Source: Escherichia coli
GTDB lineage: Bacteria; Pseudomonadota; Gammaproteobacteria; Enterobacterales; Enterobacteriaceae
Direction: 5' to 3' (one strand)
Length of the DNA stretch: 64,000 nucleotides
Assembly (NCBI RefSeq): GCF_009931435.1
Contig: NZ_CP043414.1
Every line of letters begins with the position of its first letter. The first letter of the stretch is position 1. The position numbers are program-made. Below, piece by piece: positions 18,001 through 24,000 of this stretch.

Positions 18001-21000
18001 CGTGGAATGCCAAAGTCACGCTGGGGAATGCGTTTTACGCCCAGCAGGCGCTCTTCACGCACCGCACTTAATAGCGGCAAGCGTGCTCCGGCATGAATAT
18101 TGAGCAACTGATTGACCATCGCAGTGATAAACGCGGTTTTGCCGCTGCGGCTAAGTCCGGTTACAGCGAGGCGCAGATGTCTGTCGACACCCCGATTCAC
18201 CAGCGCATTAAGTTCATTTTTAAGTCGCTTCATTGCTGTCCTGTGGACCAGAAAAAAATCATTCGTAAGGATATGAATGTGGGGGCCATGCCCTTGATTA
18301 TCAACTGCCCGTGTTGTCATCTTGAGGCGAACTCCATAAGATGTGCAGCATTCACGTTCGGACGGAGTTCCTGACCTATGTCCCCTACTATTTATGATAT
18401 TGCCAGGGTTGCCGGCGTATCAAAATCCACCGTATCACGCGTGCTGAATAAGCAAACCAATATCTCCCCGGAAGCGCGCGAAAAAGTGTTACGGGCCATT
18501 GAAGAATTACAGTATCAGCCAAATAAACTGGCCCGCGCGCTGACCTCTTCGGGCTTTGATGCCATTATGGTGATTTCTACCCGCTCGACCAAAACTACGG
18601 CGGGTAACCCGTTTTTCTCCGAAGTTTTGCATGCCATTACCGCCAAAGCGGAAGATGAGGGTTTCGACGTGATATTGCAGACGTCGCACAACCCAGCTGA
18701 AGACTTACAAAAATGTGAAAGCAAAATTAAGCAGAAAATGATTAAAGGCATTATTATGCTAAGTTCGCCAGCAGATGAGTCTTTTTTCGCCCAACTCGAT
18801 AAATACGATATTCCGGTGGTAGTAATTGGCAAAGTTGAAGGTGAATATGCCCATGTTTATTCTGTCGATACCGATAATTTTGGCGACAGTATTGCGCTGA
18901 CCGATGCATTAATTGAAAGTGGACATAAAAATATTGCCTGCCTACATGCTCCGCTTGATGTCCATGTTTCGGTTGACCGCGTTAATGGTTATAAGCAAAG
19001 TCTGGAAGATCATAATATTGCAGTGCGCAATGAGTGGATCGTTGACGGCGGTTATACCCATGAGACAGCACTGCAAGCCGCGCGGGAATTATTAAGCCAG
19101 TCACCGTTGCCTGAGGCAGTGTTTGCTACTGACAGCCTGAAATTAATGAGCATTTATCGTGCGGCGGCAGAGAAAAACATTGCTATTCCGCAGCAGTTAG
19201 CGGTGGTGGGTTATAGTAATGAAACGCTGTCGTTTATATTAACGCCTGCACCGGGCGGCATCGATGTTCCGACGCAGGAGTTAGGTCAACAAAGCTGCGA
19301 GTTATTATTCCGCTTAATTGCCGGAAAACCGTCACCACAAAATATTACCGTTGCCACGCATATGTCGTTGAAATAAATGCCAGCTACGTTGCCTGAATGC
19401 CGGATGCGATGCTGGCGCATCTTATCCGGCCTACATTTATAAACCGGATAAAGTACTCGCGCCGCATCCGGCAATTTAGCACATTATCAGAACGCGTAAT
19501 TCACACCGACACCTGCATAATGGAATTTATCGCTGTCGCCTTCATCGTGATCCTGCCACTCAAACGCGTATTCCAGCGAAACGGAAAGACCATTCTGGAA
19601 ATCATAACCGTAAAACAAACCAAGACGGTTAAAATCATGGCCTTCACGTTCGATATCATCCTGCCAGTCCCAGTTACTCCAGCGATCCAACCCAATGCGC
19701 GTATACGGTGTTACCGAGTGATTGCCGAGCGTCAGCGGTAAATAGGCGCGAATTTCTTGCGTGGAGAATTCACCGTTATTGCGGCTGTCGTCCATATTGA
19801 AGCCGCGCTCGAGATAATAGTTCACTCGCAAGGCAACCGTTTCGTTGAAGGTATATTGCAGACCCGTTTCCGTTTCGACACGGGTATCAGCATAACCGGT
19901 TGTATTCAGATCGTTGGCAAATTTATACATCGACAGCCATCCGTTGAAACGTAAATCGTCAGTCAGTTTCACGTCCCAGTCTGGCGCGATTTTCCAGCGC
20001 TGCATATTTGCCGTGTCTTTACCCGGTTCATCAACGTAGTGATAACCATAGTTACGGAAACCACCGGTCAGGCCGAAACTGAAATCATCGCTTTCGAGAA
20101 ACTGATAATGCACTTCCAGTTCCGGGCGATCAAACCAGGTTCCACGTTTACCCGCGCTATAATCTACCGGCCCTTCCTGGTAATAAGCCAGCGATATTCT
20201 CCACGGCCCATTGGCAGCATTAAAATAGACGGAAGGCTCCGCCAGCCCGTCCATATCTTCGCCATAACCCTCGACGTTTTCTATTTCGTACATCGCGCCG
20301 ATATTAAAGTGCCAGTCGTTTTTTTCCTCAGCCTGTGCGCAGGCCATTCCCGCACACATCACCAGTGCGGTACAGGGTAATAACTTTTTCATTATTGTTC
20401 CTTGTATTATCCTGGGGGAATGCCTTCCCCCTGTATTTAGCGAATTGCTATTTCCGTTTCTGCATCAAAGAAATGACATTTGGTCATATCGAAATGAATA
20501 GTGACGTTTTCTCCTGCATGATAATCATTTAACGCACCAGCACGGACCACTAACTCGTGCCCCCCAACCGTGGTGTAGAGCATAAATTCCGCACCGGTTA
20601 ATTCTGCCACGCTAATTTTGGCGGAAATGTTATTTTCCTCTTGCGCATCCGGATGAATATCTTCCGGGCGTATTCCCATCACGATGGGCTTATGCAAGCT
20701 TTCCTGCGTTTTCAGAACCGCTAATTTATCTTCGGGAATGGTTAATTTAAGCGTTTCCGTAACGAATTTATCGCCATCGATCGTGCCGCGAATAAAATTC
20801 ATTGCTGGTGACCCAATAAAGCCGGCAACAAACATATTCGCCGGTTGGTTATAGACCGTTTTCGGCGCACCGACCTGCTGAACAATCCCATCCTTCATAA
20901 TGACAATCCGCGTCGCCATGGTCATCGCTTCGGTCTGATCGTGGGTCACGTAGATCATGGTGGTGTTCAGTTTCTGATGCAGCTTGCTGATTTCCGCGCG

Positions 21001-24000
21001 CATTTGTACGCGCAGCTTGGCATCCAGGTTAGAGAGCGGTTCATCCATCAAAAACACGCCCGCTTCGCGCACAATCGCCCGTCCGAGCGCCACACGCTGG
21101 CGTTGCCCGCCGGAAAGCGCACCCGGCTTGCGTTTCAGGTACTCACGCAGGCCAAGGATTTGCGCCGCCCAGTTAACCCGCTCATCAATCACCTCTTTGG
21201 CGATTTTTTGCATCTTCAGGCCAAACGCCATGTTGTCGTAGACCGTCATATGCGGATACAGCGCGTAGTTCTGGAACACCATCGCGATATTGCGTGCTTT
21301 GGCCGGAACGTCATTCATTCGTTTACCGTCGATCAACAGATCGCCGCCGCTGATCTCCTCAAGCCCGGCAATCATACGCAGGGTGGTCGATTTACCGCAG
21401 CCCGACGGACCGACAAACACGATGAACTCTTTATCGGCAATCTCCAGGTTGAAGTCCTTCACCACATGCACCTGGTTATCGTAGATCTTTTGAATATGTT
21501 GTAACGAAAGCTGTGCCATGTTGATTCCTTTGCTATACGTTTTGCCAGAAGGCCGATAACCGCGGCCAGGTCAGGGACTCCGTTGAGGGCAACAGTAATT
21601 GCGCCCCAGTTAAGCCCGCGCCGATCCCCACCGAGCGCATACCGCTGGCGTTAATGGCGTCAATGCCCGCCTGCGCATCTTCAATGCCGATACATGCCTG
21701 CGGCGGCACGCCCAGCCCGGCACAGGCGGCGAGAAAGATTTCCGGGTCCGGTTTCGAGTGTTTAAGTTGGGAAGCGTCCGCGCAGAAGGTGAAAAACTCG
21801 CGCAGCTCCAGCGCCGCTAAAATTGTTGGGGCATTCAGAGAGACGGAGGCCAGCCCTACCGGGATGCCTTGCGCCCGAAGATCTGCCAGCAAAGGCCGAA
21901 TTCCCGGCAGAACAGCGTTAACCGTCAGTTCGCGCAGTGAGTGGACGTAGAGCAGATTTTTGCGATACGCCAGTTGCGCCCGCTCTTGCACGTTAAAGTC
22001 GCCCTCTTTGCCCCCGTGTTGCAGAATGCGTCGCAGGGACTCATCGCGGCTGATCCCTTTTAACGTCTCGTTAAATTGCACATCGATGCCGATGCCGATT
22101 TCGGCTGCAATCTGCTGCCATGCCTGGAAGTGCAGATGTGCGGTGTCGGTGATCACGCCATCCAGATCGAAAATTACCCCTTGTAGTTTCATTCATCCTC
22201 CTGATGCGTGGTAGCGGTCCCATTGAAGGGCAAAATAAAATCACCCAAACAGAAAACAGATTCTTCAGTCACGGAAATAAGCTGACCGTTCAACCGCAGT
22301 GAAACAGGCGCAGAAGTTCGAATCGCAATACGCTGCGCGTCGAGAGTGACCTGTAATTCGCAGCCTTGCCAGAACAGAGGGAAAGACAACTGTTGCCACT
22401 GCTCAGGTAACGCCGGATTGAGATGTAATTCGCCGTCGCGCACGCTGACTCCGGCAAAACCCTGAATCGCGCCCAGCCAGATAGCGCCAGTTGCGGCAGC
22501 GTGGATACCGTCATCGCAGCTATGCGGATCAGCACCAAGATCGATTTCACTCCCCTCGCGCCAGAACGGGTAACTCTGCGCAGGCAAGCCACAACGCGCG
22601 GCAACAATGCCGTGGATCGCTTTACTCAATGACGAGTCGTGAATGGTGCGCGGTTCATAAAATTGCAGATTGGCGAGACAAGAGGCCGCTGAAAATTGTT
22701 CCGGTAGCATGTAATTGAGCATCACCACATCGGCCTGCTTGAGGATCTGCATCTCGTTCACTTCTGCGCGTGAATAATCCAGCAGAATGGTTTGTTTGCC
22801 TGCCGCCGCTTTGTATTTCGCCAGATCTATCGCCGGTTTCGCCATAAACGAATCATCCTGCGGCAAAACGCCGTCGGGCTGAATTTCTGGCATCCACAGC
22901 TCTTTGAGGAACATGTCGGCACGATGAATAAACGCGTCGTCGCTACAGCCAAACTGGCGAGCAATATTCAGCGCCTGTTGGACGTTGTAGCAGGCCATAT
23001 AATTGGTGTATGCGTTATTATTAACGTGTTCGGTATATTCGTCTGGCCCAATAACATCATGAATTTCCAGACGATCGTTAACCCTTACCGCGCGGCTAAT
23101 CCAGAACTTTGCGGTCTCCAGCAGTAGCGCCATGCCTTCGTGAGCAATGAAGCTTTCATCCCCTGTTACCTGCCAGTATTGAATAACCGCCCAGGCGATA
23201 TCGGCAACCAGATGATGTTCTGCCAGCGCTGAGGCCACTTTTTGCCGCAGCCCGGTACGAATGTTAATGGCGGCAAATTCCGGCGTTTCTTCTTCGCCGC
23301 TACGTGCGCTCTCCCACGGAAACAGCGCGCCCTGCCAGCCATTGCGTCGCGCTTTCTCCTGCGCCCCCGGTAAGTTGTGCCAGCGATAGCGCAGCAAACT
23401 CCGGGCAATCGTCGGTTCGCTAAACAGATGGAACGGCAGCAGGAACACTTCCGTATCCCAGAAAACGTGGCCTTTGTAGCCTTCGCCGGTTAAGCCTTTC
23501 GCCGCAATGCTGCTACGCTCGTCATGGGCGGGCGTCATAATACGCAAATGATAAAGCGCATAGTCTAACGCCCGCTGATCGTGCGCATCGCAACTGTTTA
23601 CCGTGATACGACGTTTCTGCCACCATTGCTGCCAGTTTTCTGTGGATGCTGCTAGAAGTTGGTCATAACTCTGTTGCGTGCACCTTTCGAGCTGGCGAAG
23701 CGACGCACTGCCCCACTCGTCTAAAGCGGCTTGTCGGTCGTCCCGCCAGTCAATCCACACCCGCTTTTGCAAGGTCAGTGTTTCACCTGTGCGAAGTTGC
23801 GCGCTGGTATGTTGCAGCAAACGGCGCTCTTTTGCGGTATAGCACTGCTGAACGTCACCACTCGCCTGACAGTGACAACTGATGGCCACATCACTGCGCC
23901 CATCCTGGGTGGTGTAGATCCCCTGCATCAAATGCTGACCAAACACCCGCACCTGGGTTTCGTCCAGATGCTGGCGACCGTGGTTGGTTTGCGTGGCATC

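Follow-up and report, generated by a model that had tools for sequence, protein, structure and literature searches.

Is ycjV, the gene for the ATPase of the ycj ATP-binding cassette (ABC) transporter, intact in an Escherichia coli strain although it is disrupted in K-12, and if so, which of the two forms is the exception? This question arose from a stretch of 64,000 nucleotides (nt) of E. coli contig NZ_CP043414.1 (assembly GCF_009931435.1), referred to as the window throughout. Here, ycjV is a single open reading frame (ORF) of 360 amino acids (aa) at 20437..21519 on the minus strand, with an ATG start and zero internal stops, as determined from the ORF listing and by reading of the raw sequence. 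We are confident that this is the wild-type, full-length ycjV, that it encodes a MalK/MsmX-type ATP-binding subunit expected to serve YcjNOP, and that the K-12 form is derived from it.

All six ABC-ATPase motifs were found in canonical order (Table 1), as is typical of a nucleotide-binding domain. The Pfam family ABC_tran (PF00005) covers residues 21-162 (E=1e-31; score 110 bits, cut-off 25), and the families OB_MalK (aa 236-288) and TOBE_2 (aa 282-351) both exceed their curated cut-offs. A Shine-Dalgarno-like AAGGA is situated within the 13-nt gap between the ycjU stop (ORF end 21533) and ycjV, a placement that fits operon-internal translation of ycjV. The first-pass annotation, made from the sequence alone, had described one ORF of 360 aa with Walker A, signature, and Walker B motifs, and had cautioned that a frameshift might have been overlooked. 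The ORF listing and the motif search bear out the description. No frameshift was missed: the gene aligns base for base, with zero gaps, to intact 1083-nt E. coli ycjV genes.

In MG1655 (NC_000913), ycjV (b1318, 1380821-1381789) and the downstream ymjB (b4524, 1381789-1381902) are both annotated as pseudogenes, in agreement with the first-pass annotation. Their combined length is 1082 nt, shorter by one than that of the window gene. The pairwise alignment that had been proposed as a check located the K-12 lesion and confirmed that K-12 ycjV is not full-length. At 95.5% nucleotide identity, it contains 48 substitutions and exactly one indel, namely one G absent in K-12 from a homopolymer run at gene nt 955-960 (GGGGG, here termed G5, compared to GGGGGG, G6, in the window). 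As a result, the K-12 frame shifts after Gly320, giving a 322-aa product that ends in ...TTVGGTS (320 residues plus two aberrant ones), and the former C-terminus remains in a different frame as the 37-aa ORF ymjB. The lesion costs YcjV residues 321-360, which make up about half of TOBE_2, and keeps the nucleotide-binding domain whole. With its G6 run, the window gene has no early stop after codon 322 and reads through.

Apart from this one G, K-12 ycjV and ymjB taken together are identical to the ycjV of BL21, with zero other base differences, so that the K-12 lesion is a single and evolutionarily very recent event on the wild-type allele. The K-12 pair ycjV'/ymjB' derives from the full-length form by loss of one G in the G6 run spanning codons 319-320. 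The pseudogene status of the K-12 gene is already known and part of the reference annotation. Metabolic engineers routinely use the 'pseudogene ycjV locus' of K-12 as a site for neutral integration (PMC10380740; PMC11731478), and ycjV is among the pseudogenes named in an evolution study (PMC4786092). It has also been counted among the factors 'missing' in MG1655, in a paper that cites its implication in bovine colonisation by enterohaemorrhagic E. coli (PMC8009128).

In E. coli, the intact gene is the wild-type and majority state, and it is K-12 that deviates. Of the 4995 complete RefSeq E. coli genomes with the locus, 4416 contained the exact 61-mer of the window spanning G6; the exact K-12 60-mer with G5 was present in 370 genomes. 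Among the 65 G5 carriers listed, 62 are K-12 laboratory derivatives, including MG1655, C600, DH5alpha, DH1, J53, NCM3722, and ER strains; the other 3 are non-K-12. The exact 360-aa protein of the window is already public on at least 973 contigs, and its 90% cluster comprises 3686 members under the name 'MULTISPECIES: ABC transporter ATP-binding protein [Enterobacteriaceae]'. Hence, the contrast with K-12 to which the first-pass annotation drew attention is a real difference, but intactness is not a trait of this particular strain, as G6 is the norm.

The comparison of the window gene with a repaired K-12 ycjV points in the same direction. It revealed 45 synonymous and three conservative non-synonymous differences (A232S, D264E, and V339I), and the resulting ratio of non-synonymous to synonymous substitution rates (dN/dS) of 0.017 indicates strong purifying selection on full-length YcjV. 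Furthermore, the last 40 residues of YcjV align in frame with the C-terminus of MsmX from Bacillus subtilis (PDB 6YIR), up to the final residue, which identifies the long form of ycjV as the ancestral one.

Disruptions of ycjV were also observed outside K-12. The three non-K-12 carriers of G5 are the unrelated Shiga toxin-producing E. coli (STEC) genomes 95-3192, 2014C-3051, and 08-00022, all annotated as 'frameshifted'. Compared to K-12, their ycjV haplotypes show differences at 15, 21, and 5 sites, respectively, and are mutually distinct; either recurrent slippage in G6 or homopolymer assembly error accounts for G5 in these genomes. In strain 317, ycjV is 1084 nt long. A G7 run was considered as the cause and rejected, as the added base lies in the A-run at nt 311-316, where A6 to A7 results in a frameshift. 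Strain F3_13_1_3 has an IS1 insertion in ycjV, and in strain DXMF6-3R no more than the last 21% of the gene is matched. Loss of the importer ATPase seems to occur sporadically in natural isolates.

These cases lead to a reading in which the G6 run is a slippage-prone contingency locus that switches the ycj importer off and on, the window being caught in the ON state. The occurrence of G5 on at least four ycjV haplotypes (K-12 and the three STEC genomes), all annotated as frameshifted, and the second frameshift elsewhere in the gene, in strain 317, could be taken in its favor. However, a tract of six bases is short for phase variation, G6 is exact in the 4416 of 4995 genomes given above, and G5 is stable across all K-12 derivatives. 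In addition, each of the three non-K-12 G5 cases comes from a single assembly of the long-read era, in which homopolymer miscalls are common. We consider such a switch highly improbable. The chance that the apparent intactness is an artefact, either of a missed frameshift or of a real gene situated on the other strand, is close to nil. A 219-aa ORF with a TTG start (20845..21504, plus strand) does lie antisense inside ycjV, but the minus-strand ORF aligns without gaps to the 1083-nt ycjV in thousands of genomes, and to MsmX with E=1e-148. The antisense ORF was rejected as a gene; in K-12, it is split into ORFs of 133 and 68 aa.

With regard to function, the assignment of YcjV builds on the established mechanism of type I ABC importers. 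YcjV, in which an ABC nucleotide-binding domain is followed by an OB/TOBE regulatory domain at the C-terminus, would dimerise and dock onto YcjO and YcjP, the two permeases, in analogy to MalFGK2 and AraNPQ-MsmX. ATP hydrolysis by YcjV would then drive the import of a glucoside delivered by the lipoprotein YcjN, and the imported sugar would feed the phosphorylases YcjM and YcjT, followed by YcjQRS and YcjU. In the window, YcjN, YcjO, and YcjP are full length without stops, and show 98.4-100% amino acid identity to K-12. Together with full-length YcjV, this makes the putative importer complete, with each of its four parts intact. The suggestion in the first-pass annotation that this strain would have a functional ATPase for YcjNOP appears reasonable in view of the motifs, the low dN/dS, 357 of 360 residues shared with BL21 YcjV, and the intact YcjNOP. 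BL21 YcjV was soluble and retained ATPase activity (PMC7658222). That YcjV energises YcjNOP, the second half of that suggestion, we infer by analogy, and the truncation in K-12 would be expected to disable the protein.

Several observations weigh against this assignment. YcjV failed to complement B. subtilis msmX with B. subtilis permeases, an experiment confined to heterologous permeases (PMC7658222), and kojibiose gave no thermal shift with YcjN (PMC11543891). YcjW strongly represses the ycj cluster under laboratory conditions (PMC6599011), and an intact gene is not the same as an expressed one. Finally, the 322-aa product of K-12 retains the whole nucleotide-binding domain (aa 1-235), and its sequence does not prove a loss of function.

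The intact sequence may also have no phenotypic consequence, either because the 322-aa protein of K-12 still energises YcjOP, or because repression or a rare substrate makes the state of the ATPase irrelevant. In K-12, the first residue lost is 321, well past ABC_tran and OB_MalK. The operon is under the strong repression by YcjW already mentioned, and removing ycjW brought no improvement in the growth of MG1655 with kojibiose (PMC6599011). On the other hand, the low dN/dS holds gene-wide and the last 40 codons contain only one conservative change, an indication that selection acts on the C-terminus; this segment is conserved out to B. subtilis MsmX. The truncation also removes about half of the TOBE_2 fold, which would be expected to destabilise the domain. 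A difference without consequence therefore appears unlikely to us, and we retain the reading of ycjV as the wild-type gene for the putative ATPase of YcjNOP, truncated in K-12.

As stated in PMC6599011 with reference to Mukherjee et al. 2018, kojibiose did not support the growth of MG1655 as the only carbon source. This failure, and the ycj substrate having stayed elusive, might be due to the ycjV frameshift, an explanation which we put forward tentatively, as possible rather than probable. If it holds true, strains with the intact allele (the window strain, BL21) or K-12 with the G restored would import the true substrate and grow on it. Kojibiose, glucosylglycerate, and a guloside/glucoside are the candidate substrates, and the function of YcjNOPV would become directly testable. 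The K-12 studies published on the cluster, among them the failed growth on kojibiose, were carried out in a strain with a frameshifted ATPase. Recent papers (YcjN structure and ligand screens, delta-ycjN phenotypes, kojibiose growth tests in MG1655) name YcjV as the ATPase or nucleotide-binding domain of the transporter, with the K-12 frameshift unmentioned. The physiology of the importer is best tested in a G6 strain or in repaired K-12. The finding as such is correct but ordinary, being the normal allele of a known gene, and its value is mainly that of a practical reminder.

The features of ycjV and its neighbors are summarized in Table 1. The window contains the complete ycjMNOPQRSTUV-ompG cluster, with ycjV between ycjU (pgmB) and ompG. 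The same position and the collinearity of the cluster genes with K-12 identify the gene as the E. coli ycjV orthologue. Every ycj gene, ompG, and ycjW has its K-12 length and no internal stop. On a larger scale, the window is collinear with K-12 in the order abgB-abgT-ogt-fnr-uspE ... mppA-mpaA-ycjG-tpx-tyrR-ycjF-ycjX-ycjW-ompG-ycjV-ycjU-T-S-R-Q-P-O-N-M-psp-puu-sap.

Table 1. Positions of ycjV, its sequence elements, and the genes of the ycj cluster in the window.
Feature	Position	Strand	Basis or comment
ycjV coding sequence (CDS)	20437..21519	-	360 aa + stop; ORF call, Pfam, gene order, identity to K-12/BL21
Shine-Dalgarno-like AAGGA (tcctt on +)	21526..21530	-	Direct reading; 6-nt spacer to ycjV ATG
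Walker A / P-loop GPSGCGKS, aa 37-44	21388..21411	-	Motif search
Q-loop VFQ, aa 81-83		-	Motif search
ABC signature LSGGQ, aa 135-139	21103..21117	-	Motif search
Walker B VFLMDEP, aa 155-161, catalytic Glu160	21037..21057	-	Motif search
D-loop SNLD, aa 163-166, after Walker B		-	Motif search
H-loop THD, aa 192-194	20938..20946	-	Motif search
G6 homopolymer (CCCCCC on +), gene nt 955-960, codons Gly319-Gly320	20560..20565	-	Sequence, alignments
Codons 321-360, C-terminal 40 residues, about the second half of TOBE_2	20440..20559	-	K-12 ORFs, Pfam, MsmX alignment
ycjW, LacI-type repressor of the cluster	18378..19376	+	Regulation according to PMC6599011
ompG, monomeric porin	19487..20392	-	Begins 44 nt downstream of the ycjV stop
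ycjQ, ycjR, ycjS, ycjT (kojibiose phosphorylase), ycjU (beta-phosphoglucomutase), catabolic genes	21533..27375	-	Intact; names from K-12/RMDEC465 annotation
ycjP, permease, 280 aa	27406-28248	-	Comparison with K-12
ycjO, permease, 293 aa	28235-29116	-	Comparison with K-12
ycjN, binding lipoprotein, 430 aa	29137-30429	-	Comparison with K-12
ycjM (glucosylglycerate phosphorylase), first gene of the cluster, 559 aa	30443..32122	-	Intact; annotation

The degree of divergence varies along the window. Outside the efflux island described below, with 14000..36000 and 45067..49541 as the segments compared, not one of the complete RefSeq E. coli genomes reaches 99% identity. The best identity for the 22-kb ycj region is 98.1%, with 90-95% to most genomes; ycjT shows 90.5% nucleotide identity to K-12, and the synonymous substitution rate (dS) of ycjV is 0.215. 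The sapABCD genes are about 97.0-97.5% identical to those of the listed E. coli genomes, with a best match of 98.7% and all but 16 of the matching records in the 95-99% band. Judged by these identities, the window is from a deep-branching Escherichia lineage. Divergence is higher in the ycj cluster than in its flanks, a pattern that points to a mosaic history.

Some accessory genes were seen elsewhere in the window. The window has an insertion between tpx and tyrR, which are only about 44 bp apart in K-12, in the form of a 684-aa ORF (11997..14051, plus strand). This ORF gave no match in Pfam, NCBIfam, or PADLOC searches, and only 32 of 5426 complete E. coli genomes share it at this locus, in each case as 'hypothetical protein'. 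After sapF, an accessory efflux cluster (50398..57911, minus strand) encodes a TetR regulator (195 aa), a membrane-fusion protein (384 aa), an AcrB-family resistance-nodulation-division pump (1035 aa), an outer-membrane factor (457 aa), and a major facilitator superfamily transporter (387 aa). The cluster occurs in 2043 of the 5426 genomes, with at least 99% identity in 1402, much closer than the flanking core genes. The genes mppA (7769..9382) and mpaA (9505..10293) adjoin each other with a gap at 9383..9504; the block of pgrR, an alpha-beta-hydrolase gene, and a short-chain dehydrogenase/reductase gene that separates them in RMDEC465 is absent from the window. A pgrR-ycjY-ymjC block presumably occupies this position in K-12. 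Between the fabI region and rnb, a 401-aa ORF (59221..60426, plus strand) shows weak, sub-cut-off NCBIfam similarity to carboxymuconolactone-decarboxylase/alkylhydroperoxidase-like domains (E=4e-10), and a Pfam search with it returned zero matches at an E of 1e-5 or better.

Compared to known systems, YcjV falls into the MalK/MsmX/UgpC type by its OB/TOBE domain and its full-length matches to MsmX, AlgS, MalK, and SugC. It passes the NCBIfam model of the UgpC subfamily with 484 bits (cut-off 432). An identification as MalK itself was rejected, the MalK equivalog score being 430 against a cut-off of 568 bits. MalK (PDB 1Q12, 2R6G; E=1e-99) and UgpC are sugar-importer ATPases of this family too, likewise with an OB/TOBE regulatory domain at the C-terminus. 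Unlike MalK, YcjV would partner YcjNOP and serve another substrate, and no regulatory partner like MalT or EIIA-Glc is known for it. The closest solved structure is that of B. subtilis MsmX, which matches over the full length with the same architecture of nucleotide-binding and regulatory domains, and at a reported identity of 64% (PMC7658222). Whereas msmX is an orphan gene serving several CUT1 sugar importers, ycjV is encoded within one cluster. The K-12 pair ycjV'/ymjB' is orthologous and part of the same operon, lacking the one G with which the window gene reads through. YcjV of BL21 (WP_000057985.1, annotated as an intact CDS) is encoded at the same locus, from pgmB/ycjU to ompG, and has the same length of 360 aa. 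At the DNA level, 48 sites (about 4.4%) distinguish it from the window gene, and 45 of these differences are synonymous; the proteins are distinguished only by the three conservative exchanges named above.

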